Shown here: piece by piece, positions 4,845 through 46,660 of the stretch | Numbering within the stretch: position 1 is the stretch's first letter | Layout of the letters: each line of letters starts with the position of its first letter | Origin: Candidatus Poribacteria bacterium | GTDB lineage: Bacteria; Poribacteria; WGA-4E; PCPOR2b | Assembly: GCA_965204355.1 (NCBI GenBank) | Contig: OZ241983.1 | Coordinates: forward strand, 500,483-564,482 | Length of the DNA: 64,000 bases | Direction: 5' to 3' | Position numbers and translations under genes: made by a program | The notes under the pieces: model-generated | Told to the model about the DNA's origin: nothing | Database searches by the model: none | The model's input: the letters and a program-made list of their open reading frames with translations, nothing else

Positions 4845-4958
4845 TGATTATTCCTCCAACATTAATAAAAAAGGATTGACAAATCCGGCGACGATGGTTT
4901 TGGCTTGCCGACTTGTAAATCCTTTAGTCTGCAAAAATATAGCAATTAAGCTGCTACC

Positions 4959-5525: not shown

Positions 5526-5555
5526 TATATTCGTCTCCGAATTCAAACTGAAAAA

Positions 5556-5954: not shown

Positions 5955-5991
5955 AAGTTTTCTCCTTGTACTCGTGCCGACAAATAATGCA

Positions 5992-6177: not shown

Positions 6178-6226
6178 ATGAAGGCTCCTTTCCTTCGCTA
6201 CTATCAAGGGGGGTGGTATGCACGTA

Positions 6227-6769: not shown

Positions 6770-6821
6770 TCATTCGTACCTTATAGATTGCGGAGTTCCC
6801 TTGAGACAGGTTTGATATCAA

Positions 6822-7172: not shown

Positions 7173-7194
7173 CAGTACTACCTCCTAGGCGAAT

Positions 7195-7563
7195 TTAAAT
7201 GACCTCTGGTGCTAAAGAGACAATTCGTGCAAATGCTTTTTCTCTGAGTTCACGAGCAACGGGACCGAAAATGCGCGTTCCACGGGGCTGGTCTTGGGCA
7301 TCAATTAAAACGGCAGCATTCTTATCAAATTTAATATAAGAACCATCGAGTCTGCGATGTTCCTTAGTTGCGCGCACGACAACAGCTCGCACAACATCTC
7401 CTTTTCTAACTTGGCTATTTGGATTAGCTTCTTTTACGCTTGCCACAATTACATCGCCAACTCGTGCGTAGCGTCTTCTACTACCGCCGAGCACGCGGAT
7501 ACACATAAGCTGCTTTGCTCCTGTATTATCCGCACAATTCAACAGAGTGTACGCTTGAACCAT
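7195..7563 (-). CDS. rplN: 50S ribosomal protein L14
   Basis: 122-aa [20 protein letters not shown]..., canonical L14. Confidence 0.92.
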
Positions 7564-7601
7564 TGGTTGTTACCTTCCTGAGTTTAACCGTGTCTTCCGC
7601 T

Positions 7602-7922
7602 TCACGCATTAACAGATTCTGTTTTGGAAACGATCTGACGAACTTTCCAACGTTTCCGACGGCTGAGTGGACGAACTTCGACAACTTGGACGAGATCGCC
7701 GACACTACACATATTCTGCTCGTCGTGAGCCAGAACCTTGGTGGAGCGTCTCACAATTTTCTTATAAAGGGGATGCTGATAAGTCCGAACAATTTCAACA
7801 GCCACGGTTTTATCCATCCGATCACTTGTAACGGTACCTGTTCTGAGCTTACGATTTCCTCGTTGATGCTTATCCACGCTTTTCCTCTCGTAACTATAGT
7901 TATGGTGAATCTTCAGTGCCAA
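7602..7922 (-). CDS. rpsQ: 30S ribosomal protein S17
   Basis: S17 core (RKLRTGTVTSDRMDKTVAVEIVRTYQHPLYKKIVRRSTKVLAHDE...). The N-terminal ~20 aa are an extension or the start is mis-called; overlaps rpmC by ~23 nt. Confidence 0.8.
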   Translation of the reverse strand: MALKIHHNYSYERKSVDKHQRGNRKLRTGTVTSDRMDKTVAVEIVRTYQHPLYKKIVRRSTKVLAHDEQNMCSVGDLVQVVEVRPLSRRKRWKVRQIVSKTESVNA

Positions 7923-8106
7923 GTTCCCGTAGGCGAAGGATTGTATGGATCCGCGCGATATCCTTCTTAACTTTTTTTAGTTGAGATGTATCCTCAAGTT
8001 GTCCTAATATTCTTCGGAACTTGATGTTGAACGCAGTATCCTTAAAATTCTGGAGGTCGTTTTCTAATTCCTCGGATGATTTGCTGCGCAGCTCATTAGC
8101 GGTCAT
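7900..8106 (-). CDS. rpmC: 50S ribosomal protein L29
   Basis: 68-aa ORF with [49 protein letters not shown], typical of L29. Confidence 0.88.
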
Positions 8107-8113
8107 CGTTTAA

Positions 8114-8521
8114 TTATTCTCCCGTTCGACTGACAAACTTTGTCTCAATCGGCAGTTTGTGGGCTGCTCTTGTCATGGCTTCCTTTGCTACTTCTTCTGA
8201 AACACCACTCAATTCATACAGGATGCGCCCCGGTTTGACGACAGCCACCCAAAACTCCGGAGCCCCTTTCCCGCTTCCCATTCTGGTTTCAGCGGGTTTC
8301 TTTGTTACGGGTTTATGCGGAAAGATTTTGATCCAAACCTTGCCGCCACGGCGCACATGACGTGTGATTGCCTGTCGCGCAGATTCAATTTGGCGGCTCG
8401 TGATCCAACCCGGTTCCATTGCTTTCAAACCATACTCGCCGAAATCTATTCGTGAGCCTCGGTGAGGTGTGCCACGGCGCTTACCGCGTTGCACTTTACG
8501 GTGTAGAATCCGTTTGGGCAT
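8114..8521 (-). CDS. rplP: 50S ribosomal protein L16
   Basis: [49 protein letters not shown]..., canonical L16. Start at the second Met (8521) preferred; the ORF could extend to 8527. Confidence 0.9.
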
Positions 8522-8566
8522 CAACATTTTATGTACTCCTTCTGATTCACACTCGCGAACAAGCGT

Positions 8567-9424
8567 TTACGATTCTCTATTCTGCCGATTGGTTCTACGT
8601 GGTCCCCGTCGCCGCCCCTGATCCCCTCTGCGTCTGGATCTGCCTTCGGATCGCCCTGCCAAATCTGCTTCGTCCTGCCTGTCGGCTGAAAGACGTGCTG
8701 GCCGTCTTTGAGAGGAGTCGGTTGGCACCTGCGTAGCACGACCGGAAGGGGAATCGGCTCCGGGAAGTTCCGGCTTACCAATAATCTCCCCTTTAAAGAT
8801 CCACGTTTTAATACCAATCTTACCGTATGTTGTATCGGCTTCAGCGAAGCCGTAATCAATATTTGCTCTGAGCGTATGCAGCGGTACTCTGCCTTCAATA
8901 TTTGCTTCTGAGCGTGCCATTTCTGCGCCGCCAAGCCGACCACCGATACTAATTTTAACGCCTTGAGCACCGGCTTTCATTGAAGCGATAATACTTTTCT
9001 TCATTGCCTGCCTAAAGTTAGATCGACGTACAATTTGCAGTGCCACTGCTTCGGCAACAAGTTGAGCATCTAATTCAGGGCGCTTAATTTCAGTGACATT
9101 AATCCGGACAGTTTTTTCAGCGTTTGAACCTGAATCTTCCTGCAGGATTTTCTCTAAATCCGCTTGTAACTTTTCCGCTTCAACACCACGCCGTCCAATG
9201 ACGATACCGGGACGTGCTGTGTGTATATGAATATTACACCTATCACCGACTCTTTCGATTTCGATACGAGAAATGCCGGCACGTGACAATCTTTCCTTAA
9301 TGAACGACTGAATTTTCAAATCCTCATGAAGCCATTGGGCATACTCTTTCTCGTTGTACCATCTCGAATCCCAATGCTCAATGATGCCTAGGCGTAATCC
9401 ACGCGGGTGCGTTTTCTGTCCCAC
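8567..9424 (-). CDS. rpsC: 30S ribosomal protein S3 with long Arg/Gly-rich C-terminal extension
   Basis: KH and S3-C domains ([23 protein letters not shown]...), then a ~60-aa low-complexity [46 protein letters not shown] tail. Confidence 0.9.
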
Positions 9425-9495
9425 TAAAACCTCCTCATCAAAATTCAGTTAGGCAAAGGTTGCGGAGCGGCGGAGGTAAAGGAATATACATCATT

Positions 9496-9861
9496 CTATT
9501 CATCTTCGCCTTCTTCTTCCTCGTCTAGTACGACCGTGATATGGCATCTACGATGTAGGATTCTGTTTGCCATACCGCGTGCCCGTGGGCGAAACCATCT
9601 TCGGGTAATGCCATCGTTGACGACAATCTGTTTGATAACTAGATTGGTTTCATCAATAGTGACACCCTGTTGTTGTGCGTTATATCGTGCATTCGCAGTA
9701 GCTGATTGAATTAGTTTGCGAATTACGGGGGAGGCCGCTTTATGTGTAAATGTCAGTTGGTTTATTGCCTCTTCGACATACTGATCTTTAACTAAATCAG
9801 CGACCAGACGCGCTTTACGCGGGGCGATCGGCACGTTTCGGATGCTTGCTCGAGCTTCCAT
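9496..9861 (-). CDS. rplV: 50S ribosomal protein L22 (acidic C-terminal tail)
   Basis: MEARASIRNVPIAPRKARLVADLV... L22; ends in EEEEGEDE. Confidence 0.9.
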   Translation of the reverse strand: MEARASIRNVPIAPRKARLVADLVKDQYVEEAINQLTFTHKAASPVIRKLIQSATANARYNAQQQGVTIDETNLVIKQIVVNDGITRRWFRPRARGMANRILHRRCHITVVLDEEEEGEDE

Positions 9862-9972
9862 GTCAAGAATCTCCTAAATTAGCTTGAGCATTTGTACTAA
9901 CTTCCGCTCATCATCTCGATTTCTCAACGGGGGAGTACAAGAATCGAGTTTGTTTTAGCAGTCGAGTATATT

Positions 9973-10239
9973 TTATCTCCCACCACTCGCATGCGCTCTG
10001 AATGTTCGAGTGGGAGAAAATTCACCTAATTTGTGTCCCACCATGTTTTCTGTAATATAAACGGGAAAGAATTTCTTGCCGTTATGAATGGCGAGCGTAT
10101 GACCAATCAGTTCCGGAGTCACCATAGATCTGCGTGACCATGTGCGAATCACACGTTTTGTTCCAGACCGATTCATCTCATCAATTTTTTTGAGAAGTTT
10201 CGGATCTATGTAGGGCCCTTTTTTCACAGAACGGGGCAT
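9973..10239 (-). CDS. rpsS: 30S ribosomal protein S19
   Basis: [19 protein letters not shown]...[29 protein letters not shown], canonical S19. Confidence 0.92.
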
Positions 10240-10297
10240 GATATACCTCCTGAAGATCGGAAAAAACTACGCAAAGCGTTTTGTCAATCGAGGCAAA

Positions 10298-11122
10298 TTA
10301 CTTCCGACGACTGACAATATAGCGCCCCGATCGTTTTTTAGGATCTCTTGTCTTATATCCTTTAGTTGGAACTCCCCACGGTGTTACGGGGTGTCTTCCA
10401 CCAGCACTTTTTCCTTCGCCACCACCATGCGGGTGATCGTGTGGATTCATCGCTACACCGCGCACTTTAGGACGATGCCCCTTCCATCGATTTCGTCCTG
10501 CTTTACCGATGGTTAGGTTTGCATGGTCAAGGTTACCGACCTGCCCAATCGTTGCCATACATTGCACCGGAAGTAGACGGACTTCGCCGGAGGGCATTTG
10601 AATCCGCGCATACTTTCCTTCACGATCTACTAGCTGTGCCACGGCGCCTGCGCTCCGTACCAGTTGGCCCCCTTTCCCCGGCTGCATTTCTATATTATGT
10701 ATCGATGTGCCGAGTGGGATCCTTTCAAGTGGCATAGCATTGCCAACTTTGATGGGCGCATCTGGGCCAGCATTTAATTCATCATCGACTTGTAATCCGA
10801 GAGGTGCGATGATATAACGTTTTTCTCCATCGGCGTAATGGAGTAGGGCAATACGGGCAGATCTACTGGGGTCATACTCGATTGAGGTGACTTTGGCAGG
10901 GATGCCAAACTTATCGCGCTTAAATTCGATATTTCGATACCGTCGTTTATGGCCGCCACCGCGCCTGCGGACAGTCATACGTCCGAGCGTGTTGCGTCCG
11001 CCCTTTTTGTTCAACCCCTTTGTTAACGATTTTTCGGATTGTCGCCGGGTCACTTCTTCAAAAGCATCCCCTGTTATAAATCGGCGACTGGGTGTGACGG
11101 GTGAATATGTTTTAACTGCCAC
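10298..11122 (-). CDS. rplB: 50S ribosomal protein L2
   Basis: 274-aa [18 protein letters not shown]... with the conserved GHK and GGGEGK regions. Confidence 0.93.
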
Positions 11123-11160
11123 GCTAAATCCCTCCTAAGTAAGCCTTCAAACACGCGCCG

Positions 11161-11460
11161 CTAGATAGTTTCAAAAGCCTCAATGATTGTTCCTTCAGTA
11201 ACAGTGATGATTACCTTTTTCCAGTTAGGTCGCCGCCCCTGTCGATACCGCCAGAACTGCCCTTTGGTTTTTCCTTGGACCTGCATGGTGTTAATCTTCA
11301 CAATTTTATCTTTGAGATCGAACAACTCTTCAGCTGCTTCACGGATGTCCGCTTTATTGGCTTTGATATCAACAACAAAGGCGTATTTGTTCTCTTCTCT
11401 GAGGATTGTGGTTTTCTCTGTTATTAGCGGCTGCTTGATAATCCGATATGGGTCTTTCAT
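11161..11460 (-). CDS. rplW: 50S ribosomal protein L23
   Basis: 99-aa ORF MKDPYRIIKQPLITEKTT...; stop abuts the rplD start. Confidence 0.88.
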   Translation of the reverse strand: MKDPYRIIKQPLITEKTTILREENKYAFVVDIKANKADIREAAEELFDLKDKIVKINTMQVQGKTKGQFWRYRQGRRPNWKKVIITVTEGTIIEAFETI

Positions 11461-12117
11461 CTATGCTTCCTCAACTGATGAATCGTCTGTTGGCTGACCA
11501 AACTTTTCTTCTAGCTTCTCTGCTGCGCTTTCGGTGAAAACAATCTTATCATGCCAAAGAACGTCGTAGACATTAAGGGTATTCCAAATACAGCTGTTCA
11601 CATTTGGGATATTCCGTACAGATAGATAGATGTTTGATTCGGGTTGTCCGAGAACAAAGAGGACTTTATCCGAAAGCCCTAAATTCCCTAAAACTTGAAC
11701 CATATCCTTCGTTCTTGGGGTATCTAATGTAAAGTCTTCAATCAGAACGCAATCATCACTTTGGAATTTATCTGCCAGAGCCGAGTGTAATCCGAGTTGA
11801 CGGACCTTCTTCGGGGTGTGTTGACGATAGCTACGAGGCTTGGGACCAAATGCAACGCCACCATGTACCCGTATTGGAGATTTGGCGTCCCCGACTCGGG
11901 CTCGTCCCGTTCCTTTCTGGCGATATAGCTTTTTACCACTTCCCTGGACTTCTGACCGTGTTTTCGTAGAAGCCGTCCCTTGGCGTTGATTTGCGAGGTG
12001 TGCAACGACGCATTGATGAACAACTGCTTTATTAACAGCTACATTTACAAATGCGTCGGATAGCTCTTTTTGTCTTAGGGTATCTCCAGAACGATCATAT
12101 ACATCTAAAGCTGCCAT
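11461..12117 (-). CDS. rplD: 50S ribosomal protein L4
   Basis: 218-aa ORF with [33 protein letters not shown], the L4 signature. Confidence 0.9.
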
Positions 12118-12145
12118 ACGCGATAATCCTCATAAAGGGATCTAT

Positions 12146-12784
12146 TTACTGTTTGCCCTTCACTGCTTTCTTGATAATAAGTAATCCGTTGGGTGGACCG
12201 GGGACTGCACCTTTAACAAGTAATAGGTTCCTGTTGGAATCTGCTTGGACAACTTCTAGGTTCTGGGTTGTCACCCGTTTCCCGCCGTGGCGTCCAGGCA
12301 TTTTTTTGCCTTTGAAAACACGTGAGGGCCATGCACTGTGGCCAATGGAGCCGGGTCGCCGATGGTTCTTCTCGCTACCGTGGGTTTGCTTCATACCAGA
12401 AAAGCCCCACCGTTTAATCACCCCTGTGAAGCCGCGTCCTTTAGACGTCCCCGTTACATCAATGATGTCTCCGGGAGAGAAGATATCCACGTCAACGTTT
12501 GAGCCGACCTCCAACCCCTCTGTACTATCAACACGCATTTCCCGCAAAAACCGATGGGGGGTGACATTTGCCTTTTGGAAGTGTCCACTCTCGGGCCGAT
12601 TGACCTTATTTTCCCGTCGATCACCGAAGCCTAATTGGATGGCGTTATAACCCTCATGGTCTTGAGTTTTAATCTGTACTATCGGGCAGGGACCTGCTTC
12701 GACTACCGTGACTGGAATTGCAGTCCCGAATTCGTCAAAGATTTGTGTCATGCCGATCTTCTTTCCTAATATTCCATTACTCAT
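12146..12784 (-). CDS. rplC: 50S ribosomal protein L3
   Basis: MSNGILGKKIGMTQIFDEFG...; internal Met at 12784 chosen over the ORF start at 12799. Confidence 0.9.
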   Translation of the reverse strand: MSNGILGKKIGMTQIFDEFGTAIPVTVVEAGPCPIVQIKTQDHEGYNAIQLGFGDRRENKVNRPESGHFQKANVTPHRFLREMRVDSTEGLEVGSNVDVDIFSPGDIIDVTGTSKGRGFTGVIKRWGFSGMKQTHGSEKNHRRPGSIGHSAWPSRVFKGKKMPGRHGGKRVTTQNLEVVQADSNRNLLLVKGAVPGPPNGLLIIKKAVKGKQ

Positions 12785-12828
12785 GTTACATCTCCACAAC
12801 GAGGGTGTTCAGGTTCAACGACGCGTGC

Positions 12829-13143
12829 CTACAGAAGCGTAATTTTGACATCAACACCAGCTGGTAGATCTAAGCGCATCAGCGCATTGACTGTCTTGGG
12901 GGTCGTCTGTAAAATATCCAATAATCGCTTGTGAGTTCGCATTGCAAACTGTTCGCGCGACTTTTTGTCTTTGAAGGTCGATCGCTGTACAGTATAAGTG
13001 TGCTGCTTGATCGGAAGCGGAATCGGACCTGAGACTAATGCACCTGTCCGTTTAGCGGTCTCTGCGATCTGGCCTGCGGAATGATCTAACAAACGATAAT
13101 CAAATGATTTTAGCCGAATCCTTATTTTCTGGTTGTCCATCAA
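12829..13143 (-). CDS. rpsJ: 30S ribosomal protein S10
   Basis: [44 protein letters not shown]..., canonical S10/NusE. Confidence 0.92.
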
Positions 13144-13267
13144 TACTCCAACTATACAACTTATTGCGCTTAAAAGGGTTGACTCTGTTGTTTCGTAAGA
13201 CGGGCTGTAAGAGGGAACTGAGAGGTGTGAAAGCCGATCCCTCGACTTTCACACTTGGTAACAAGTA

Positions 13268-14467
13268 TTACTCAATAACCTCTGAAACAACGCCGGCTCC
13301 GACGGTGTGTCCACCTTCACGAATTGCAAACCGCAGCTCCTCTTCCAGAGCAATGGGCTTGGTGAGTTCAACGGTAATTTGGATATTATCTCCGGGCATC
13401 ACCATTTCCACGCCCTCGGGAAGGTTCATCACACCTGTTACGTCCGTTGTGCGGAAGTAGAATTGTGGACGATAGCCGCTGAAAAATGGTGTCCATCGAC
13501 CGCCTTCGTCTTTGTTCAGAATATAGATTTCAGCCGCAAATTGCGTATGTGGGGTAATACTGCCCGGTGCGGCGAGCACTTGTCCGCGCTCAACGTCCTC
13601 ACGTTCGATACCTCGGAGCAGGACGCCGACGTTATCGCCTGCACGACCTTCGTCAAGCAGCTTACGGAACATCTCGACACCGGTGGCAACTGTGTCGGTG
13701 GTTGGCGCGAGTCCAACAATTTCGATTGTGTCACCAACATTAACGATACCACGCTCGACACGACCTGTTACAACCGTGCCACGTCCCGTGATTGAGAAGA
13801 TATCTTCCACGGGCATTAGGAAGGGTCGATCCACATCTCGAACCGGCTCCGGAATCCAACTGTCACAGGCTTCCATGAGATCTAAAATTGGCTTACACTC
13901 GTCGGCACCCGGATTCCCACCACTTTCCATAGCTTCAAGGGCAGACCCACTAATAATTGGAATGTCATCGCCGGGGAACTCATATTCGGTGAGTAGTTCT
14001 CGAACTTCGAGTTCTACCAATTCTAAGAGTTCTTCATCGTCCACCATGTCTGCTTTATTCAGGAAGACAACGAGACTTGGCACGTTCACCTGTCGTGCAA
14101 GCAGGACGTGCTCGCGCGTTTGGGGCATAGGACCATCAGCAGCGGAAACAACAAGAATTGCACCGTCCATCTGCGCCGCACCGGTGATCATGTTTTTAAT
14201 GTAGTCAGCATGCCCAGGACAGTCCACGTGAGCATAGTGCCGGTTTTCGGTCTCATACTCAACGTGCGCGGTGTTGATGGTAATCCCGCGTTCCTTTTCC
14301 TCGGGAGCTGCGTCAATTTCTTCGTAAGTTTTTACGTACTCGCTCCCAGAGAGATTTGACAATACCATGGTAATTGCAGCTGTTAATGTGGTTTTACCAT
14401 GATCAACGTGTCCAATCGTGCCGACATTGACGTGTGGTTTAGTCCTTTCAAATTTTTCTTTTGCCAT
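13268..14467 (-). CDS. tuf: translation elongation factor Tu
   Basis: 399-aa [36 protein letters not shown]... with G1-G4 motifs; str operon position. Confidence 0.95.
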
Positions 14468-14561
14468 GTGTAAATCTCCTCAATTCTACTTATAGCTTAA
14501 ATATAACACGCATTACTCACCGTTAAACTGTGGCAGGGCGCCATGTCAACAGCGGTAACGG

Positions 14562-16658
14562 TTAAACAGAAAATCCTTGCGACGATATAATTTCCTCAGC
14601 AATGCTCTGGGGAACGCTACTATAATGTGCAAACTCCATCGAATACGTTGCCCGTCCTTGCGTCAGAGAACGAAGCGTTTTAACATAGCCGAACATTTCT
14701 GCAAGGGGTACATGGGCTTTAATAACCTGCGTTCCGGACTTGGGATGCATATCGGTATGAAGAATTTGTGCGCGACGCGCATTTAAGTCCCCCATTACCT
14801 TTCCCAAATAGTCATCGGGAGCAGTCACTTCAATCTCCATGATTGGTTCGAGCAGCATCGGATCTGCACGTTTCACCGCGTCTTTGAGGGCAATCCGAGC
14901 AGCGTTTGAAAATGCGATCTCTGAAGAATCAACGGGATGGTAAGAGCCATCATACAATCGCACACCGATATCAACGAGCGGATAACCCGCTAAAATTCCG
15001 GTGGTTATTGCATCCTCAAGTCCCTTACGGACGGCGGGTATATACTCTTGAGGAATGACACCTCCCTTTATATCATTGACGAATTCAAAGCCAGATCCTT
15101 GCTCTAACGGGTAAATCTCGATAACCACATGTCCAAATTGACCACGTCCACCGGATTGCCGGACGAAACGCTCGTTGGATTCTGCGGGGCACTGAATAGT
15201 TTCGCGGTACGAAACTTGGGGTTGACCAATCTCTGCTGAAACGTTAAATTCTCGAATCAGGCGATCGACAATAATCTCCAGATGCAATTCCCCCATGCCA
15301 GATAGAAGTGTTTGCCCTGTTTCTGAGTCCTGATGCATCTTAAAAGTTGGGTCTTCCTCAGCCAACTTTGATAGGGCCATGTTCATCTTCTCGATGTCCG
15401 ACTTTGTTTGGGGTTCGATAGCGATCGACATTACCGGGGATGGAAACGCCATTGATTCCAAGACAATTGGGTCACTCGGATCGCAAATGGTATCACCGGT
15501 CATCACGGATTTGAAGCCAATGATGGCTGCGATATCGCCCGCATAGATGGCTTGACGTTCTTCACGCTTATTTGCATGTAGCTGCATCAATCTGCCGATC
15601 CGTTCAAATTTTCGGTGTGTACTGTTGTATACAGTCATTCCTTTAGCCAAAACACCGGAGTAGACGCGTAGGAATGTTAGCTTACCAACATGTGGATCGG
15701 TTGTAATTTTGAATGCTAGGGCAGAAAAAGGGGCGTCATCGTCTACTAAACGTGTTTCTTCTTCTCCCTCAACCTCCGGATTTAAGCCGGTTATGGGTGG
15801 TACATCTATTGGAGAAGGTAGGTAATCGACGACTGCGTCTAGTAGCGGTTGGACCCCTTTGTTCTTCAGGGCTGTGCCGCACAAGACGGGAACGATTTGC
15901 CCGCTTAAAGTCGCACTTCTCAAGCCTGCTTTAATCTCTTCTTCGGATAATTCGATGCCATCAATATATTTGGCTAACAGGTCATCATCACATTCAGCAA
16001 TTGCTTCCAACATCTGTTCTCGATATTCCAAGACACTTCCCATCATTTCATCTGGAATATCTGTATCAAACATTATAGATCCGAAACTGGCTTCGTCCCA
16101 TGCTAAGGCTTTTAGTGAAACCAAATCAACAATTCCGCTGAAGCTTTCGGCGGAGCCGATCGGCAGCTGAATTGGCACTGCTGTGGCACCGAGTCGCTCG
16201 ACCATCATTTCGACCGTTCGGAAAAAATCAGCACCGGTTCGATCCATCTTGTTGACGAGTGCGATACGTGGCACCTGATATTTATCTGCTTGTCTCCAGA
16301 CTGTTTCTGACTGGGGTTCCACGCCGCCCACCGCACAAAAAACAGCGACAGCTCCATCAAGGATTCGCAGCGATCTTTCGACTTCAACTGTAAAGTCGAT
16401 GTGTCCGGGGGTATCAATAATGTTGATTCCGTAGCCGTCCCATTGGCACGTTGTTGCAGCAGCGGTGATGGTAATACCACGTTCCTGCTCCTGTGCCATC
16501 CAGTCCATTGTCGTAGTACCGTCGTCGACCTCTCCCATACGATGTACTTTACCTGTGTAGTACAGCATACGTTCGGTTACAGTTGTCTTGCCTGCATCGA
16601 TGTGTGCCATGATGCCGATGTTGCGTGTATGGGTCAATGGAAACCGGCGTCGCTCCAT
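14562..16658 (-). CDS. fusA: translation elongation factor G
   Basis: EF-G sequence ...[25 protein letters not shown].... Start set at [15 protein letters not shown] (ATG at 16658); the ORF extends to 16706. Confidence 0.92.
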
Positions 16659-16785
16659 GGAGCGCCGATTTTCAGCGGTCATTTGATTTCGTTTTGTAGA
16701 TCTCATTTTCCTGAAACTTTCCGTGATACATTACTAAAAATAAAGAATTATCGTCCTGATAAAGCGGGGCTTCGCTGCGTTCAGA

Positions 16786-17256
16786 TTACCAGCGGTAATG
16801 TGCAAACGCTCGGTTGGCTTCTGCCATGCGATGCTGATCGAGTTTTCTGCGGATTGAAGCGCCGTCATTCCTGGCGGCGTCTAATAGTTCTCCCGCCAAC
16901 CGCTCTGCCATCGTCTTCTCCCCACGTTCCCTTGCAGATTGAATAATCCAGCGGAGTGCCAACGTTGTACGACGTTCCGCTTTGACGTCAACTGGCACTT
17001 GGTAGGTTGCTCCTCCAACGCGCCGAGACCGAATTTCGAGAACCGGCTTAACGTTATTAATTGCTTCTTGAAAGACTGTGAGACCCTCTTGGTTGGTGCG
17101 CTTCTCAACAATATCTATACTGTCGTATAGGATTGCCCGGGCAACACTCTTCTTTCCACGAGCCATTAAGAAGTTTATAAATTTCGCAACCAGCTTACTA
17201 TTATATTTTGGATCTGGGAGTACGTCCCGTTTAACAACTTCTGCACGACGTGGCAT
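16786..17256 (-). CDS. rpsG: 30S ribosomal protein S7
   Basis: [37 protein letters not shown]..., canonical S7. Confidence 0.93.
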
Positions 17257-17267
17257 TCCTTCCTCCT

Positions 17268-17639
17268 CTAGTTGACACTCTTTGCACCATATTTCGATCT
17301 AGCTTGCCGTCGATTTTCAACACCGGCAGTATCCAGTGTGCCTCGAACGATATGGTATCTGACATTGGGCAGATCCTTGACTCTTCCGCCTCGCACAAGT
17401 ACAACCGAGTGTTCTTGGAGATTATGATCTACGCCGGGGATATAGCAGGTAGCTTCCTGACCATTCGTAAAACGGACGCGAGCGACCTTACGAAGTGCTG
17501 AATTCGGTTTTTTGGGTGTTATAGTCCTAACTTGTAGACAGATGCCCCGCCGTTGGGGACAACTTTCCAAGACTGGAGATTTACTTTTTTTGCTCGATCT
17601 TTTACGAGATTTTCTGACTAACTGATTTATTGTTGGCAT
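17268..17639 (-). CDS. rpsL: 30S ribosomal protein S12
   Basis: [62 protein letters not shown]..., canonical S12. Confidence 0.95.
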
Positions 17640-17670
17640 ATCGACCTCGACTAATAATGATGTGCAGGCA

Positions 17671-24289: not shown

Positions 24290-25258
24290 TTAAGAAATTG
24301 GGCGTCCTTCTCCCGTATCCGTTTCGCTCTTAAAGTCTGTGTACTTACAAAGATGCTGCAGGAATTTCTCTAATTCGTGTAAGTCTATGTCATACTCACA
24401 ATGGTCTTTTGGAGAAATAACAATTGTCAATTTTTCAGCAAATTTCTTTTCCGAACATGCTGCAATAAACGATTGAATAATCTCTCTAATCATTTTCTCT
24501 CTTTGCACGTTTACCCTAGCACGGCCCGTGCCTAAAACAGGTACTATAAGATTTCCGAGTTCACCTTGTTCCCCAATATGATTCCAGAGTTTACCTAGGC
24601 ACTCTACTATTTCTTCAAATGAGCCATCGGGTACGCCATGTTCATTCGTATCGGCAATTGCAATCCAATAAGCCATTTGGCCTTTGGGTTTTAACCCAAC
24701 GACAGTGCCAATCTCGTAACGCTTTTGTTTTCCTTTTCTGTTATCTTCAACCAAAGTAAAACTCTGATTTTCTAACTTTTGTTCTAATTCATAATCAAGA
24801 TGTTCTACCGCGTTATAGTACCTCTGCGTAAATTGTCCCTGTAAACTGTCTGCAGAAATCAAGCCTCCTGATATATCAGTATCGAATGTCGTATTTGTGC
24901 TTATAACAAATACCCCATCCTCAATATTAAAAATATCGTCAACTCGAATTTCTATTAACACATCGGTTTCACCTAGCTTCTCGCTTACCGGAAGCATCTT
25001 TGGTTTCTCGCTTACTAAAGGCATCTTTGCGCGTTTTCGAAGTAAGCGGGCAATACCTACAAATGCTCCAACTACAATAATCACGACAAGCATTAGGAGG
25101 TTACCACTGGACCGTTCGTCAAACGCAGTAACGAAATGAGATAGTAGTTCAATTGCTACCCAAATCGCGCTATAAAAATAGCACGCTGTGCGTATCACTA
25201 GCCTGTACTGTCGGTAATTTTTCAAGTGATTTCTAGTAAGAAAACGAGGTAATTTCAT
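24290..25258 (-). CDS. thsA: Thoeris ThsA-like effector, type II architecture (two N-terminal TM helices + C-terminal Macro-like domain)
   Basis: 322-aa ORF. Two hydrophobic helices (LVIRTACYFYSAIWVAIELLSHFV and LLMLVVIIVVGAFVGIARLL) are followed by a Macro-like domain (VFVISTNTTFDTDISGGLISADSLQG... and LIVPVLGTGRARVN, resembling macro VNAAN..GGG and PxIxTG loops). It overlaps the upstream ThsB gene by 4 bp. Confidence 0.6.
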   Translation of the reverse strand: MKLPRFLTRNHLKNYRQYRLVIRTACYFYSAIWVAIELLSHFVTAFDERSSGNLLMLVVIIVVGAFVGIARLLRKRAKMPLVSEKPKMLPVSEKLGETDVLIEIRVDDIFNIEDGVFVISTNTTFDTDISGGLISADSLQGQFTQRYYNAVEHLDYELEQKLENQSFTLVEDNRKGKQKRYEIGTVVGLKPKGQMAYWIAIADTNEHGVPDGSFEEIVECLGKLWNHIGEQGELGNLIVPVLGTGRARVNVQREKMIREIIQSFIAACSEKKFAEKLTIVISPKDHCEYDIDLHELEKFLQHLCKYTDFKSETDTGEGRPIS

Positions 25259-25758
25259 AATCCCAATTCAGTGTAAAGGGTTTGCTTGTAATAATACGGA
25301 CCAGATTTTCCTTGTTGCTTATAGTGATCGTGACTCGCTGACCAATTATCTAATGCATGCTGTACAATAGCAGCATTAAAACTGACATAGACGACCAGTT
25401 CATCACGTATTATGGGTGGACACCTGACAGAATCTTGTTGTCTGAGTCCATTCAAATTAACACCAATTATCGGGATATCTAAAGATAACGCTTGTTCCAT
25501 CTCCCACCGTACAAACCGATAAAGATATCGTGTATTTTCCCCAATTAAGACTACCATAATTTTGCTGTTTTTCAATCTTACCCGGAGCCGCTGCCTAATT
25601 GACTCTGTTAAACTTGTGTCCCGCCCAGTATTTAAATCGTGAGCATCAAAGAAGTTGAAGGAAAAGCCATCATTTTGCTTCCAAGCCTTCATCAACCAGT
25701 AATAGCGTATATCGGTGTCACCATCAAAACACACGTATGTTTTGTTTCTGTAAGGCAT
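25255..25758 (-). CDS. thsB: Thoeris ThsB, TIR-like domain protein (DUF1863/MTH538 TIR-like)
   Basis: 167-aa ORF. KTYVCFDGDTDIRYYWLMKAW...FDAHDLNTGRD...IMVVLIGENTRYLYRFVRWEMEQALSLDIPIIGVNLN aligns motif-for-motif with Bacillus cereus ThsB (FFSFHYQD...FDASLWED...VTCVLIGSQTFNRRWVRYEI...IIGIHIN). Confidence 0.8.
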   Translation of the reverse strand: MPYRNKTYVCFDGDTDIRYYWLMKAWKQNDGFSFNFFDAHDLNTGRDTSLTESIRQRLRVRLKNSKIMVVLIGENTRYLYRFVRWEMEQALSLDIPIIGVNLNGLRQQDSVRCPPIIRDELVVYVSFNAAIVQHALDNWSASHDHYKQQGKSGPYYYKQTLYTELGL

Positions 25759-25845: not shown

Positions 25846-26202
25846 TCATTTCAACTGCTTGGCAATTGGAACTATGTCTTCGTCTGGTATTTGAGAAAGT
25901 TTCATAAGATTGTAAAGATAATCACCTATTCTATGGAGGGTCATATCACTAGGTCTTACACTCCTCATTCTAGACAGAACATTTCGTTCAAAAGTAATAG
26001 TATCTGATTTAAAGTGAATATATTCCTTGCTATAAAGATCGCTGCATTCATAAAGTACTTGATAGAGATTTTCTTCAATCCTTGCATACTCACGGTAATT
26101 ATTATCGCGCAACTCGTAGGCATCTTTTAGTATACAAAGTTTTAGTATGCATAGTTGTTGGTAAGTTAGTTGCTCTGCAGCCTTTATGAGTTGGTGTGCC
26201 AT
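25846..26202 (-). CDS. hypothetical protein (defense-island resident, no recognisable domain)
   Basis: 118-aa ORF, AT-rich codon usage like the neighbouring Thoeris genes; I recognise no motif. Confidence 0.4.
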   Translation of the reverse strand: MAHQLIKAAEQLTYQQLCILKLCILKDAYELRDNNYREYARIEENLYQVLYECSDLYSKEYIHFKSDTITFERNVLSRMRSVRPSDMTLHRIGDYLYNLMKLSQIPDEDIVPIAKQLK

Positions 26203-26692: not shown

Positions 26693-27304
26693 TTATTGCC
26701 CTAGAGAGGAACCTAAGCCTGAATCTCGGTCAAACTTTGATACAAGAAAATCTACATCGTCCGGAGTTAGATCTGGAAATTCCTTGATTATATCGTCTTT
26801 AGTTATATCTCGGAGTGAGGGCTGATGCTCGCGCAGTCTGCGAACGCAGTGTTTGTCCTCGTCAAGGCGGGGTTTGATTATTGCCAACGCATGTTGATAA
26901 CTGGAAAGGCATGGAGTCCAATGAGACTGGGCAAACTCTTTCTTCATGTAGTGGGCCGCAAAGTAGCAAGCAACTCCTTCTTCGAAATTATTGGCGTTTC
27001 GCCCTCCGCTCGGTGAGAGTAAATGAACTGCTTCATGCGCCATTTGATAGCACGCCCGCGACATACTTGTACCAGCTGAAAAATCAAGTTGGATCACGAT
27101 ATGACAGCGATTTCCAGGATACCATATTTGGGGGCCATCGGACGCAAACTCTATACCGAGGATGGTGTACGAGTTGTCACGCGGTCCGAATAATTCCTCA
27201 GCCATGTGAAGCATATCACCAAGTCGAGAAGCCAACGTCCATGTGTAGCCCCTCCCATTGGCTAGACGTTCTGCAATTATTAAATTCTCCCTAATACCCT
27301 GCAT
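26693..27304 (-). CDS. HExxH-motif putative zinc metallopeptidase (ImmA/IrrE-like?)
   Basis: 203-aa ORF with CYQMAHEAVHLLS (HEAVH = HExxH). It lies 3 bp downstream of the Abi-alpha-like gene. Confidence 0.4.
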   Translation of the reverse strand: MQGIRENLIIAERLANGRGYTWTLASRLGDMLHMAEELFGPRDNSYTILGIEFASDGPQIWYPGNRCHIVIQLDFSAGTSMSRACYQMAHEAVHLLSPSGGRNANNFEEGVACYFAAHYMKKEFAQSHWTPCLSSYQHALAIIKPRLDEDKHCVRRLREHQPSLRDITKDDIIKEFPDLTPDDVDFLVSKFDRDSGLGSSLGQ

Positions 27305-27307
27305 ACA

Positions 27308-28117
27308 CTACGTTCCTTCGGTTTTGAGGTTTTCGGCCGCTAGCGCGTTGGAAACTGATTTGGGAATTCCTTCAATCTCAGGGGAAAAATCGTCTGTGAG
27401 CAAGAAGTTAAGATCTTTATCGCCGTGTCCAAATGCCCATAGTAACAGTTCGGCCCCTAATGCACTAGGTGTACATATAAACCCACCGCTAGGAACACCA
27501 CTGAACAGGTCCTTGAGAGACTCTTGAGGACCAAATCTCCAATCGTTGTCTATGAGACCATCTCCATTGAGGCCATGAAAAATATGATTTAACATTTGGC
27601 GATTATCCCATTCTGGTTGTGTGAACTCCATAGCTTCCGCATAATTTTGAAGTGGCATGAATAACTGCATTTTTCTCCTATTTTCATGCAAGTTAAAGCT
27701 ATTTCCACTGTTCGAGAACAATTCTGATATGGTGGAGTAAATGAGATAGTGTGATCGCAATTGGTATGCTGACATGTTGTCGATCATCTTCGCTAATCGC
27801 GCTCCTCTATCATCTCGACCTACCTCAGTCCTTGATGATGCTAAGACTCCACCAAAATACTCTACAGCAACAGTATCCTCAGCATATGAACCCTCATTAA
27901 GTACTGTTTTGAAAACTTTGGGAGGAATTCGTCCGGGTCTATTCAATTTATCACCAAGTTTTTCTCCTGCGTTTAAAAGAATCTTATCTGCGTTCTCCTT
28001 CCGCTTTCTTTTCCATGCTAAAAGATCTTCTCCGTAGTCTTCCGCGATTGGTCCTAGTAGTTTTATTACAATATCACCAATAGTCCCTGATAGCCCTGTG
28101 CTAGAAGTTTCTGACAT
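27308..28117 (-). CDS. Abi-alpha (DUF4393)-like abortive infection candidate
   Basis: 269-aa ORF. The N-terminus IVIKLLGPIAEDYGEDLLAWKRKRKENADKILLNAGEKL resembles, from memory, the conserved N-terminal motif of Abi-alpha family proteins. Co-oriented and almost abutting the HExxH gene. Confidence 0.35.
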   Translation of the reverse strand: MSETSSTGLSGTIGDIVIKLLGPIAEDYGEDLLAWKRKRKENADKILLNAGEKLGDKLNRPGRIPPKVFKTVLNEGSYAEDTVAVEYFGGVLASSRTEVGRDDRGARLAKMIDNMSAYQLRSHYLIYSTISELFSNSGNSFNLHENRRKMQLFMPLQNYAEAMEFTQPEWDNRQMLNHIFHGLNGDGLIDNDWRFGPQESLKDLFSGVPSGGFICTPSALGAELLLWAFGHGDKDLNFLLTDDFSPEIEGIPKSVSNALAAENLKTEGT

Positions 28118-28196: not shown

Positions 28197-29108
28197 CTAC
28201 TTCATTTCCTCATTGGCTTTTGCCAGAAAGAGAATGTTTGATGCAGTCAAGTGAAGGGCGTATGCAGCCATGTATTCCGGAACGGGGATCACTTTGGAGC
28301 CCTGCCCATGTCCCGACTGGCGATTGCGAGCAGTGGGAAGCCCAGATTCCAGTGTACTTCTGAGACTCGTAAAGTGTGACTGCATGTAATCTGGAATTAA
28401 TTTTCTATCAAATATAACCCCAATCAGACGACTGGCGGTATCTGTTTCCTTATATTTCCACCGCCTCGTTGCACAAATCGCTTTCATACAACTCTCAAAT
28501 GCCTTGAGACATTCGTTCATACATGCTTCGTAACTTTTCGCTCGATAGTGCTTGTGCGCTTTCAGAAATTCGTCATTTGCCCCTTCGTACATCGGATCTG
28601 AAAGCATCTTCAGTGCAGGCTTCATTGCTTCAGAATGGATGAACTCAGAATCAACTCGGACTATTTGACCTGATTCATACTGATACCCAACGCCACGTTC
28701 TCGGAACCAATAATTTAATTGTGCAATTGCCTCGTCGGGTGAAATGCGGCTGTAGCGTTGATCCATATATCGGAATGAAAGTTCAATGACATCAATTGCC
28801 TTTTCTGCTTCCTCTGTTTGAAGGAAAAAGTTGTGGACTGAGTCAAAATCAGAATCATGGGGGCCGCCAAGGCCTAGCGTGCCATAATGGTAGCTCAGAG
28901 TTTTGTGGATAAACTCGTATGCCACGGCAGTGTCGCTAGGATAGTAGAGTCCTCCCATGCTACTATGTTCAGTCTCCCCAAAAGCCTCCTGCCAGATGTG
29001 GATAACCTGAACTCGTAATTCTTGGGGAATCGTTTCGTATTGATATACGTCTGGAACTTCGCCTCGGAGACGCTTTTGACGCTTTGAGAAAAGATCAAAA
29101 ACTGACAT
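28197..29108 (-). CDS. HEPN-domain protein (Rx4-6H motif), AbiJ/Abi-like abortive infection candidate
   Basis: 303-aa ORF. The C-terminal region has the HEPN signature RNRQSGH (R-x5-H) in a predicted helical context, TARNRQSGHGQGSKV. Confidence 0.45.
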   Translation of the reverse strand: MSVFDLFSKRQKRLRGEVPDVYQYETIPQELRVQVIHIWQEAFGETEHSSMGGLYYPSDTAVAYEFIHKTLSYHYGTLGLGGPHDSDFDSVHNFFLQTEEAEKAIDVIELSFRYMDQRYSRISPDEAIAQLNYWFRERGVGYQYESGQIVRVDSEFIHSEAMKPALKMLSDPMYEGANDEFLKAHKHYRAKSYEACMNECLKAFESCMKAICATRRWKYKETDTASRLIGVIFDRKLIPDYMQSHFTSLRSTLESGLPTARNRQSGHGQGSKVIPVPEYMAAYALHLTASNILFLAKANEEMK

Positions 29109-29126: not shown

Positions 29127-29162
29127 ATAAAAAAGGCAGCTCCCGATTGTTAGGGGCTGCCT
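29127..29162 (-). terminator. putative Rho-independent terminator after the MTase-HNH gene
   Basis: On the minus strand, the stem GGCAGCCCC...GGGAGCTGCC is followed by a run of seven T. It sits ~20 nt upstream of the HEPN gene's SD (AAGGAG) and start. Confidence 0.5.
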
Positions 29163-29420
29163 CCTGAGTGTTGAAAAAATATTTGCCTTTTTTGCACTAT
29201 TTATGCTAAAATCCTAAAAATAGAGGGGTAGAGACCATAAAATCCTATGCCTCTCGGCAAATTGGAGCGCCCACTCCAGTTTGTTTAACTATCACAGGAA
29301 CCCGGCTTAAACGCCGGGTTTTCTGTTTCCATTCTAAAGAAAATGGTAACATTAATTTTCGTCAAACGCAAGTGCGATTGAAGGTAATGATTCCTATGTA
29401 ATGATCCTGAATACTCAAAC

Positions 29421-30845
29421 TTAATTCCTTTTTAACCTCACCCGCAGCTCAGCAACTGTGCCTGTTCCCTTCAGTGAATTGCAAGCCCCACACAACAGCC
29501 ATAAATTCTCAAAATGATCTGTCCCACCCTTACTTCGCGGAATCTTGTGGTCAATCGTCAAATTGCGAAATGGGAAGTGAATCTCGCACCCGCCACATAT
29601 CCCCTCTTGCAGCCCATACAGTGTGTGCTTATGCGTTCGGGCAGGCGGTATATCGCTCATGTCAGTGCGCTGTGGATAGTCGTCGCGGTGGACAATCTCT
29701 GGGAATAAGCCTTGATCTGCTTTGATACGTTCTACCACCAACTCGGCTGCCTTTGATGAAATATCAATCCCTACCCATCTCCGCTGCAACCGGTCTGCTG
29801 AAACCAATGTCGTGGCACAGCCACAGAAGGGATCAAACACAACATCACCGGGGCTGCTACTAGCTTTGATGATGTGCTCTAGGAGAGCAAGAGGTTTCTG
29901 TGTGGGATAGCCGGTACGTTCTTTTCTACCTGGACCTTTGACTTCAGCGATTATATCTTGCAATGCACGCCCCTGACTCGCATCTAGATATCTCTTGAGT
30001 CTTGGCATTGTTCCGTTATTGGGCCAATAAATGAGATCCGCTTCATTGAGGATATCTAGGCGGTCATGCACACTTGTTATTTGCCTGTAATTTGGGATGA
30101 AGTGTTTTTCGATATATTCGGCATAAGCGCCGGTGCGCGGCGGTCTCCAGTGATTCCCAACTGTAGTAGGATCAATGTTACGCCACGGTTGTCCGGACTC
30201 CCCTTGTCTTGGTCCTGATGCTGTGAGATCGCTAGCACTATATCGACCACGAGCATCTTTATTACGGTAGTATTTTTTGACGTACTCCGGATCATGCGCT
30301 TCATACTGTGTGTGCCATGTCGCCCCTTCACCCCTGACATAATAAAGGAGGGTGTCGTGGATGCGCCCAAATCGATTCGGATCGTTGTGAGTTGAGGTCC
30401 GCTTCCAAACAATTTCATTCCGAAAATTATCAGCGCCAAAGATACTATCCATCACCAACTTCAGGTAATGAGAGGCGGTCGGGTCGCAGTGTAGATAAAT
30501 GCTCCCCGTGTCTTTCAGGATACGCCCCATCTCCAGTAGACGGGTAGACATCATAATGAGGTAGCTTTGCATGCCTTTGCCGTGTGTTTCGCGTGCTGCT
30601 TGTATCACGGTGTGGAGGGATGGGGCTTGTTCAGCAAGTTCGCCGTGTTCAGCGATATCAATGTCGTTGAGGGTCCAAGTATCTTTGAAGGCGGCACCGG
30701 CGGCTCGGCTGCCAATGGGGGCGGCATAATTGCGGTTAGAATTAAAGGGTGGATCGAGATAAATCAGATCGACGCTATCGCTATTCATCCCCCGCATAAT
30801 GTGCAAGTTATCACCGATGAAGATGGTTTTGTCTTTCCAGTTCAT
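29421..30845 (-). CDS. DNA amino-methyltransferase (beta-class, N6-A or N4-C) fused to C-terminal HNH endonuclease domain
   Basis: 474-aa ORF. Motif IV DPPF (DLIYLDPPFNSN) precedes motif I (VFDPFCGCATT) and TGYPTQKP. The C-terminal HNH has CGGCEIH...IDHKIP...HFENLWLLCGACNSLKG. Confidence 0.7.
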   Translation of the reverse strand: MNWKDKTIFIGDNLHIMRGMNSDSVDLIYLDPPFNSNRNYAAPIGSRAAGAAFKDTWTLNDIDIAEHGELAEQAPSLHTVIQAARETHGKGMQSYLIMMSTRLLEMGRILKDTGSIYLHCDPTASHYLKLVMDSIFGADNFRNEIVWKRTSTHNDPNRFGRIHDTLLYYVRGEGATWHTQYEAHDPEYVKKYYRNKDARGRYSASDLTASGPRQGESGQPWRNIDPTTVGNHWRPPRTGAYAEYIEKHFIPNYRQITSVHDRLDILNEADLIYWPNNGTMPRLKRYLDASQGRALQDIIAEVKGPGRKERTGYPTQKPLALLEHIIKASSSPGDVVFDPFCGCATTLVSADRLQRRWVGIDISSKAAELVVERIKADQGLFPEIVHRDDYPQRTDMSDIPPARTHKHTLYGLQEGICGGCEIHFPFRNLTIDHKIPRSKGGTDHFENLWLLCGACNSLKGTGTVAELRVRLKRN

Positions 30846-31159: not shown

Positions 31160-31235
31160 ACATGTCGCCCCGCTGGGGCTTTGGGGGATGGGGCTATCCG
31201 TATGCTATAAACATGTCGCCCCGCTGGGGCTAAAT
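31160..31235. repeat. REP-like bipartite palindromic element, family B (copy 1)
   Basis: ACATGTCGCCCCGCTGGGGCTT-(28 nt)-CTATAAACATGTCGCCCCGCTGGGGCTAAAT. Each half holds the hairpin GCCCC-GCT-GGGGC. Related copies at 46610 and 51126. Confidence 0.75.
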
Positions 31236-31504
31236 GCACCCTGTCCCTTTCTAAAATAGTCCCGTTTCACTTTCCAGTTTCTATCCCCGATAAATCGGGA
31301 TTAAGAAACCTGAGAATCCTGATTCAGACAATAATGATGCACACCCCTCAATTACTTGGACACTCTGTACCGGCGAGGTTTCCTAACCGCACCGCCTCCC
31401 GACGAGTCGGGACAGGACATGGGGAGCGAAAGTGTCTACATATTTTGATAATTCACAATAAATCAACCCAGTCACATAGTGATTCTGATAATAAGGGAGG
31501 GCTG

Positions 31505-40730: not shown

Positions 40731-40822
40731 AGGCCCGGTAGGTGCGTGGGTTGAAACGGCGCAGTTACAAACAGCGCCTACCAAACGGGAGCCCGGTAGG
40801 TGCGGTTTCTAACCGCACCGGG
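40731..40822. repeat. REP-like palindromic element, family A (copy 3, inverted orientation)
   Basis: CCCGGTAGGTGCG...GCGCAGTTACAAACAGCGCCTACC...CCCGGTAGGTGCGGTTTCTAACCGCACCGGG is the reverse complement of the copies at 19026 and 20412. Confidence 0.75.
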
Positions 40823-40927
40823 CATCGCTCGGAGATTACCCAATTAATAAATTAATCTTCATCTGGAGCGAAAACTTGAGTGCCTCAACTTTAACTGAAA
40901 ATCGATAATCTTTTAATCTGTATGCCG

Positions 40928-46398: not shown

Positions 46399-46609
46399 GA
46401 GAATACTTTTACGAGATAATTTTTTGAAGTCGATTTTGGAAAATCGACCTACAGCAGGGCTAATCGGGGCCCATTAACTTTGGTGCTAGTTAGTGAGAAA
46501 GTCGTTTCCACATTGTTCCAGTCGCTTTGGATCCCGATTTATCGGGGAGTTCATTGGTCGGTTGGTTCATTCATTCTTCTTACGTTCCATCCTTCGGATA
46601 CACATGTCG

Positions 46610-46660
46610 CCCCGCTGGGGCTTTAGGATATTTGTTTATCCGTGTACTATAAACATGTCG
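46610..46660. repeat. REP-like element, family B (copy 2, second half truncated or disrupted)
   Basis: ACACATGTCGCCCCGCTGGGGCTTTAGG...CTATAAACATGTCG; the matching ...GGGGCTAAATGAACC tail lies ~70 nt away at ~46727. Confidence 0.6.

Follow-up and report, generated by a model that had tools for sequence, protein, structure and literature searches.

The window analysed here is a 64,000-nucleotide stretch of Candidatus Poribacteria contig OZ241983.1 (positions 500,483 to 564,482). On its minus strand lies a gene that joins a DNA methyltransferase (MTase) to an HNH nuclease domain at the C-terminus, referred to below as the fusion: a single open reading frame (ORF) with an ATG start, 474 amino acids (aa) and a stop codon, occupying exactly 29421..30845. 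GC content is 0.39-0.45 at 24-30 kb, compared with about 0.51 on either side. Judged by its neighbours, the fusion gene heads a predicted defence island: downstream and on the same strand are an AbiJ_NTD4/HEPN gene, two genes without matches, a 118-aa ORF, ThsB and ThsA. The upstream neighbour is a divergently oriented gene for a xylose-isomerase-like TIM barrel protein.

A methyltransferase and an HNH domain in one polypeptide

Pfam assigned residues 25-371 of the fusion protein to PF01555 (N6_N4_Mtase; E 9.8e-40) and residues 417-461, at the C-terminus, to PF01844 (HNH; E 2.8e-12), with a further match to PF14279 (HNH_5; E 1.5e-10). A first-pass annotation of this DNA had proposed such a fusion, and the two significant domain matches, together with the same layout in at least 120 homolog clusters, uphold it. 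The motifs run in the order D31-P-P-F34 (motif IV), a variable insert, YPTQKP at 313-318 (motif X) and DPFCGCAT at 338-345 (motif I). This places motif IV before motif I, in agreement with the earlier call of a beta-class enzyme, and by this layout the MTase part is a predicted beta-class N6/N4 amino-DNA methyltransferase. Motif I had been read as F-x-G-x-G and is instead F-x-G-x-A (D338-P-F-C-G-C-A-T345), with A344 invariant across the family.

The tail follows the pattern C417xxC420 ... D432-H433 ... H444 ... N447 ... C452xxC455-N456. It is a predicted HNH, or His-Me finger, domain, since it has the general-base His, the structural Asn, an Asn as metal ligand and a CxxC...CxxC zinc site. Of the pattern previously given for it, C..C..H..N..H..C..C, both CxxC pairs, the His and the Asn are present; the second His is not, the stretch from the Asn to the second CxxC being without a His. 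At the position of the last metal ligand stands Asn456, giving an H-N-N variant like that of Cas9 and IscB.

Comparison with solved sequences and folds placed the MTase part closest to CcrM, a Type III Mod, EcoP15I Mod, M.BceJIV and MboIIA, residues 308-378 being the stretch that best matches CcrM (6pbd). The HNH tail was closest to the Cas9 HNH domain 8d2k (E 9e-8) and to the Gme HNH nicking endonuclease 4h9d. An AlphaFold model of the fusion (predicted local distance difference test, pLDDT, 71.5; predicted template modelling score, pTM, 0.55) was used for fold assignment only. In a Foldseek search of the Protein Data Bank, its best match was EcoP15I Mod (E 8e-15), followed by CcrM and the Type III Mod 6k0w, and the HNH part matched 4h9d; residues 190-290, in the central part of the protein, were modelled with confidence (pLDDT 82-95). 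PADLOC matches were to methyltransferase models only (Type II, Type III including MTase_III, and orphan). NCBIfam gave CcrM-like MTases and, for the tail, the HNH regions of IscB and Cas9d, all far under family cut-offs. The DPPF motif, with Asp instead of Ser, and the likeness to CcrM, Mod and M.BceJIV suggest N6-adenine as the methylation target.

Conservation, selection and decay

Among the 5.8 billion proteins searched, homologs formed at least 120 clusters with identities of 58-89%, and both domains are annotated in all but two of them (P0036 and P0037). Because clusters at these identities have the same full-length layout and invariant key residues, we do not regard the fusion architecture as a product of chance. 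Residue conservation was scored in 118 full-length homologs. The invariant positions include D31, P32, P33, F34, D338, P339, F340, G342, A344 and Y313-P318 in the MTase part, and C417, C420, D432, H433, N447, C452, C455 and N456 in the HNH domain. We also estimated ratios of nonsynonymous to synonymous substitution (dN/dS) from 14 Poribacteria copies with strong synonymous divergence (median dS about 0.9 in the MTase core and about 1.4 in HNH). Values were 0.065 for the N-terminal half of the MTase, 0.035 for its C-terminal half, 0.06 for the linker and 0.023 for HNH. Judged by substitution rates, the MTase and HNH domains are both maintained by purifying selection. Degeneration of the HNH catalytic residues, which the first-pass annotation had named as the outcome that would speak against its proposal, was not seen: they are intact in the 118 homologs, and the dN/dS of the domain is as given above.

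These results bear on the possibility that the protein is a Type IV-like, modification-dependent nuclease, in which the MTase fold would read modified bases and the HNH domain would cut modified foreign DNA. HNH is a common effector of modification-dependent enzymes such as TagI, VcaM4I and McrA (PMC12707154). However, neither the catalytic DPPF nor the SAM-binding motif I varies in the family, as expected of an active transferase and not of a reader, and Pfam detected no SRA, EVE, winged-helix or RAMA sensor domain. Invariant MTase motifs and the lack of a known reader domain argue against membership of Type IV, and we consider this option, one of three that had been offered for the fusion, highly improbable.

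Degenerate copies are also present. HNH is lost in L075, P0036 and P0037, and the MTase N-terminus is absent from L054, L069 and P0012. At one locus the fusion gene is duplicated in tandem, with copies 98.8% identical (L003, 8001-11041); at another a remnant with an internal deletion joins the first 156 nucleotides (nt) of the gene to the last 228 (L005, 10714-11089); and the copies in L009 and L030 are broken by frameshifts. These four loci point to continuing duplication and decay, and such copies are possible substrates for cassette exchange. In a Dehalococcoidia subclade (L013 and L035, both 8001-9425, and P0083), C-K-C (CxC) replaces the first CxxC of the HNH domain, with D-H, N and CxxC-N kept.

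Exchange of the central module

Several Poribacteria paralogs (L008-L012, L040, L075 and L077) are 80-86% identical in nucleotide sequence to the window gene over codons 1-150 and 308-474, yet have no detectable nucleotide homology to it between codons 150 and 308. At the protein level, 151 pairs are at least 80% identical in the core and at most 40% identical in residues 151-307. One Poribacteria chromosome (OY764061.1) has at least four copies with three module types; four of them share 92-96% identity in the core and 20-33% in the module, save one pair at 77%. The same pattern of like cores and unlike modules was found in genomes of Caldilineaceae, Phototrophicaceae and Dehalococcoidia, and the reverse also occurs: in L008 and L042 the module is 87% identical and the core 69%.

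The variable residues lie where beta-class MTases carry their target-recognition domain (TRD), and we therefore take residues 151-307 to be a putative TRD. Its swapping fits a single recognition module that would serve both methylation and cleavage, and resembles the TRD variation of Type III mod alleles. The options first offered for the fusion were a self-contained restriction-modification (RM)-like enzyme, a modification-dependent nuclease and a phage-derived orphan MTase. The shuffling of the module between near-identical paralogs makes the self-contained RM-like enzyme the best fit of the three.

Carriage of related fusions by IS1595-family elements

To describe the gene neighbourhood, ORFs were called and clustered at 80 loci (79 from named genomes and the window). 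No nuclease, helicase/Res or second MTase recurs beside the fusion in these loci, and none of the window neighbours is a separate endonuclease, as had been noted before. The sole recurrent neighbour, at 12 loci, is a protein of about 326 aa encoded directly upstream in the same direction, often with a 1-base overlap. It is an IS1595-family transposase, with PF12762 (E 6e-42) and a PF12760 zinc ribbon.

In at least 15 of the 80 loci the fusion is cargo of an IS1595-family transposon of 2.4-3.3 kb, arranged as terminal inverted repeat (TIR), transposase, MTase-HNH, TIR (L014, L017, L018, L023, L032-L034, L039, L043, L046, L056, L069, L071, L074 and L076). The TIRs are 23-59 bp long and start with GGG(G/A)ATTAT, and 11 of the 15 TIR-bearing loci have a recognisable adjacent transposase gene with DDE_Tnp_IS1595 and Zn-ribbon domains. 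Nine elements are flanked by perfect 8-bp target duplications: L014 (TTAATATA), L017 (GAAAATTG), L018 (CAGCGCTG), L023 (TTTCGTTA), L032 (TAAATATG), L033 (TTCGGGAA), L039 (CGGTGAAG), L046 (ATATTTTA) and L071 (AATACAAG). These ends and the 8-bp duplication would fit the ISNwi1 subgroup. Some copies are nearly or fully identical: L017 and L018, 0.9 Mb apart on the same Thermoanaerobaculia chromosome, have 2,697 bp in common at 100%; L074 and L076, on the same alphaproteobacterial contig, 3,207 bp at 100%; and L032 and L034, from different metagenome-assembled genomes (MAGs), 2,980 bp at 99.6%.

The IS-borne copies are spread across at least six clades of the family tree, and transposase and cargo identities are uncorrelated (rho 0.05). 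Together these observations imply that the pairing of transposase and fusion was reassorted or formed anew repeatedly, and on the lack of correlation we reject a single ancient capture of the fusion by an IS. Elements of this kind are known as 'transporter IS', a term reportedly due to Siguier et al. 2009. The literature recognises IS1595 elements that carry passenger genes (PMC3129680; PMC7986276), and relatives of the window gene resemble them in their TIRs, transposase and 8-bp duplications; we found no report in the literature of an MTase-nuclease fusion as an IS1595 passenger. The window copy differs from these elements in having no transposase, TIR motif, target duplication or second copy nearby, and is, on sequence grounds, most likely a transposase-less descendant of a mobile gene.

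Such carriage raises the alternative that the HNH part is a mobility-associated nuclease, which would help the gene or transposon to spread or be retained (through homing, gene conversion or aid to the IS1595 transposase) with the MTase as cargo or shield. Homing endonucleases, or the IscB and TnpB nucleases of IS200/IS605 elements, would be the parallel. The position of the fusion directly after, and often overlapping, the transposase within TIRs in these loci, the repeated formation of the pairing and the proximity of the HNH domain to those of Cas9 and IscB all speak for it. However, most copies, including the window gene and the whole Poribacteria clade, are without transposase or TIRs and yet have a strongly constrained HNH domain; homing or transposition would need no dozens of different recognition modules; and no guide-RNA-like family was detected in the window. 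We consider a mobility nuclease unlikely and retain the reading of a self-contained RM-like enzyme.

Three further observations concern these elements. The transposon copies at L074 and L076 (6657-9863 in both; CBDCRU010000002.1) lie in opposite orientation at a distance of about 480 kb, and their 8-bp flanks (TTCGACAA / AATTCGAG) are exchanged. This points either to a large inversion produced when the copies recombined or to an artefact of assembly. An 817-aa ORF in L033, considered as a transposase-MTase-HNH triple fusion, has no in-frame transposase domain and was rejected. The only repeat pair flanking the window gene, a 16-nt inverted repeat (29141-29156 / 31285-31300; 81%), was put down to chance: IS ends would be oriented otherwise, and a terminator loop contains one of its arms.

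Distribution and relatives without the nuclease

The 79 best genome loci are nearly all from MAGs of Poribacteria, Dehalococcoidia/SAR202, Caldilineaceae, several Acidobacteriota, Arenicellales and Alphaproteobacteria, lineages that we take to be sponge symbionts; two are Nitrosopumilus archaea, at 47-48% identity. Because the query itself comes from a sponge-symbiont habitat, the list of relatives is biased, and we make no claim that the family is restricted to sponges. The core tree mostly tracks host lineage, with few clear transfers. Sponge symbionts have been documented, in general terms, to be enriched in methylase and RM genes (PMC6697440), a topic that PMC5099237 also concerns. A search with the linker and HNH tail gave 712 representative clusters at E<=1e-10. 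All eight ordinary long hits that were checked proved to be N6_N4_Mtase plus HNH, and two odd repetitive ones did not. These results argue for a large, coherent family. In the literature, a scope that leaves REBASE outside, we found no description of an N6_N4 (beta-class) MTase-HNH fusion.

The MTase part alone (residues 8-379) is 38-48% identical to methylases of Streptomyces and Mycobacterium phages, IMG/VR contigs and rhizobial plasmids, and is in this respect like the orphan N6_N4 MTases of phages and plasmids. Unlike the fusion, those proteins stop before the linker and HNH: nearly all of the matches listed end at residues 370-410 (one at 443), and the HNH motif spans 417-461. Among the viral matches listed, the best 15 of 559 cultured-phage records and the best 80 of 439 IMG/VR relatives, none is the fused form, all being MTase-only or ending before the HNH motif. 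PHROGs has no family spanning both domains, its MTase and HNH families being separate. These endpoints do not favour the origin of the fusion as a phage-derived orphan MTase that had been considered earlier. One plasmid match, H22, seemed at first to cover both domains; it is a 683-aa Type III Mod beside a helicase and does not belong to the family.

Relatives of this kind could also be taken to mean that the fusion protein is a solitary epigenetic or anti-restriction MTase and its HNH part a non-restricting accessory, perhaps a DNA clamp of the zinc-finger type, or else a nickase that would act in repair or strand discrimination. The nearest non-fusion relatives are the MTase-only proteins of actinophages, IMG/VR contigs and rhizobial plasmids just described, NCBI calls cluster P0105 simply a site-specific DNA-methyltransferase, and several copies kept the MTase and lost HNH. 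Yet neither the D-H pair nor the two Asn residues (structural and metal-ligand) vary, and the dN/dS of the HNH domain is 0.023, which argues for catalysis and not for a mere clamp. Regulatory orphan MTases such as CcrM and Dam retain one specificity, whereas this family shuffles its recognition module and builds up paralogs, and the gene sits in a defence island. We judge a solitary MTase to be an improbable account of the fusion.

A proposed combined restriction-modification enzyme

We assign a probability of about 55% to the reading that the fusion gene encodes a self-contained, mobile, combined RM enzyme with a beta-MTase plus HNH architecture. A Type III Mod-like beta-class N6-adenine MTase would read a short DNA sequence via its central module and methylate that sequence on host DNA. 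The C-terminal H-N-N HNH domain, of the Cas9/IscB kind and held on a conserved linker, would cut or nick at or near the unmethylated target, a double-strand break probably needing a dimer, as in other beta-class MTases. Methylation and cleavage would both take their specificity from one module, so that a swap would give a new and still self-protecting specificity; this would explain why genomes carry many paralogs that differ only in the module. In combined RM enzymes, change of the specificity module alters restriction and modification together and lets the enzymes diverge widely through exchange of domains; up to 20 of them are found in some genomes (PMC4081073). This is the pattern seen in the fusion family and leads us to the combined RM reading. 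As IS1595 cargo in related genomes, the gene would be selfish and mobile as well as defensive, and IS carriage would fit the behaviour of selfish, addictive RM genes. Adenine methylation (from DPPF), nuclease action on unmethylated sites, dimeric cleavage and an anti-phage or addiction benefit are what we infer for the enzyme.

Type IIC enzymes are defined by endonuclease and methyltransferase domains in one polypeptide (PMC4081073). Both domains lie here in one 474-aa ORF, and the fusion is most likely, from its domain content, a Type IIC enzyme in the broad sense with a new architecture. Like Type IIC/IIG enzymes (the MmeI family, Eco57I and BcgI), it is a single polypeptide with a recognition module presumably common to both activities, would diversify in specificity by module exchange and occurs as several paralogs per genome; like MmeI, it has no obligatory partner gene. 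Type IIG enzymes, however, have a gamma-class MTase and a mostly N-terminal PD-(D/E)XK nuclease (PMC4081073). In place of the gamma-class NPPY/F/W motif and the N-terminal nuclease, the fusion has beta-class DPPF, an internal module and a C-terminal HNH domain, so that it falls outside Type IIG, to which it had been likened. The combined architectures given in the Type II review are gamma-class with PD-(D/E)XK and, as an exception, alpha-class with PD-QXK in BtgZI (PMC4081073); a beta-class MTase with HNH is not among them.

The fusion is also like a Type III Mod (EcoP15I Mod, Mbo45V Mod) in being a beta-class adenine MTase, by prediction, with a central interchangeable recognition domain between conserved catalytic parts at the N- and C-terminal ends. 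Unlike a Type III system, it has no adjacent Res (SF2 helicase plus nuclease) in any of the 80 loci, and it carries a fused HNH domain and no ATPase for long-range site communication; the locus is thus not a Mod plus Res pair.

Several points weigh against a combined RM enzyme. Truncations of both kinds, of HNH and of the MTase N-terminus, are present, where a toxic nuclease would be expected to give a one-sided pattern. The protein lacks an ATPase or translocase, nor is there a separate MTase, and the proposed mechanism does not account for the protection of newly replicated or asymmetric sites. An HNH domain with one active site may only nick. The structural model is of moderate quality (pTM 0.55) and gives no reliable placement of HNH relative to the DNA cleft. 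In the literature we found no biochemically or methylome-characterised member of the family.

If HNH does restrict unmethylated sites, the fusion would represent a third architecture for combined RM enzymes, besides the gamma- and alpha-class enzymes with PD-(D/E)XK. More tentatively, and with less confidence than for the window gene, the family could be a previously unrecognised class of single-chain RM enzymes, in which a Mod-like beta-MTase with plug-in cassettes and a Cas9/IscB-type HNH domain would be carried by IS1595-type elements as addiction or defence cargo. Each cassette-swapped paralog, in symbionts of several phyla, and each Nitrosopumilus relative might then be a distinct sequence-specific cutter or nickase. 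If unmethylated sites are indeed restricted, the family would also amount to hundreds of specificities produced in nature by cassette swapping, within a small protein of about 470 aa. Such a collection could yield new enzymes for restriction or nicking, and rules relating module to motif. Simple insertion sequences would be able to carry a complete RM function as an addiction or defence payload, opening a route for restriction to spread between phyla and domains in a dense host-associated community. The family would also offer a molecular example for the methylase and RM enrichment of sponge symbionts (PMC6697440, PMC5099237).

The defence island and its surroundings

Coordinates of the fusion, its parts and its neighbours are collected in Table 1. 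ThsA and ThsB form a type II Thoeris pair with a 4-nt overlap at the far end of the same low-GC island from the fusion. The 269-aa and 203-aa genes are packed tightly, 3 bp apart, and together with the 118-aa ORF are candidate uncharacterised defence genes.

Table 1. Parts of the MTase-HNH fusion and neighbouring features in the window
Feature	Position	Strand	Basis
MTase-HNH, complete ORF	29421..30845	-	ORF listing, Pfam, at least 120 homolog clusters
MTase N-terminal catalytic half, aa 1-150, motifs IV-VIII; motif IV at 30744-30755	30396..30845	-	D31, P32, P33, F34 invariant
Central variable module, aa 151-307, putative TRD	29925..30395	-	Between motifs VIII and X; swapped among paralogs
MTase C-terminal half, aa 308-378, motif X and SAM-binding motif I (29811-29834)	29712..29924	-	Invariant residues
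Conserved MTase-HNH linker, aa 379-410	29616..29711	-	R387, D389, P391, L409 invariant
HNH (beta-beta-alpha-metal) domain, Cys4 zinc site, aa 411-474; D432-H433 at 29547-29552	29421..29615	-	Pfam, invariant residues
Second hairpin, CCCGGC...GCCGGG	about 29299-29320		Read from sequence
Terminator-like hairpin, GGCAGC...GCTGCC then T-run, between fusion and AbiJ-like gene	29127..29161	-	Read from sequence
AbiJ_NTD4 + DUF7014/HEPN protein, STM4504/CBY_0614 family	28197..29108	-	NCBIfam 365 bits; weak PADLOC PDC-S32
269-aa gene	27308..28117	-	No Pfam, NCBIfam, PADLOC or PHROGs match
203-aa gene with HEAVH (HExxH-like) motif	26693..27304	-	No Pfam, NCBIfam, PADLOC or PHROGs match
118-aa ORF between AbiJ-like gene and Thoeris	25846-26202	-	No Pfam, NCBIfam, PADLOC or PHROGs match
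ThsB, TIR-like	25255..25758	-	PF08937; PADLOC ThsB1 E 4e-76
ThsA, Macro domain	24290..25258	-	PF20016 E 6.5e-50; PADLOC ThsA1 E 4e-66

The two hairpins between the fusion and the AbiJ-like gene suggest that the fusion gene forms a transcription unit of its own; a consensus terminator scan flagged neither of them. On both sides of the island, the flanks are 83-90% identical in nucleotide sequence to another Poribacteria chromosome (L004, OZ220744.1), but the island content differs, with an additional 942-aa gene and no Thoeris block there. Matching flanks around differing contents imply that the site is a variable insertion hotspot. The 942-aa gene lies between the xylose-isomerase-like and MTase-HNH genes of L004 (about 5228-8001), where the window has no counterpart. 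The AbiJ-like gene was considered as a general partner of the fusion and rejected, since it accompanies the fusion only in the window and in the syntenic L004, where the match is confined to separated segments, and not in other genomes.

An Rfam scan of the window found no guide-RNA-like or other RNA family near the fusion. The window has three copies of a GC-rich palindromic repeat of 21 nt, ACATGTCGCCCCGCTGGGGCT (+ strand), at 31160-31180, 31211-31231 and 46602-46622, two of them sitting just upstream of the fusion gene. Other positions, in Poribacteria L002 and L004, are also matched by a 75-nt stretch that includes the repeat. The repeat is probably an intergenic element resembling repetitive extragenic palindromic (REP) sequences or MITEs (miniature inverted-repeat transposable elements).

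Elsewhere in the window, ARAGORN called an 89-nt tRNA-Cys with the unusual anticodon ACA at 40735-40823 (+). Rfam at gathering threshold gave no tRNA anywhere in the window, and the call may be a false positive or an atypical tRNA. From 1 to 17640 (-) runs a series of short co-directional ORFs plus ORFs of 399 and 714 aa, which by ORF sizes only looks like the ribosomal-protein/elongation-factor (str/S10/spc) operons. On that reading, about 6.6 kb would separate the defence island from the end of the ORF series.

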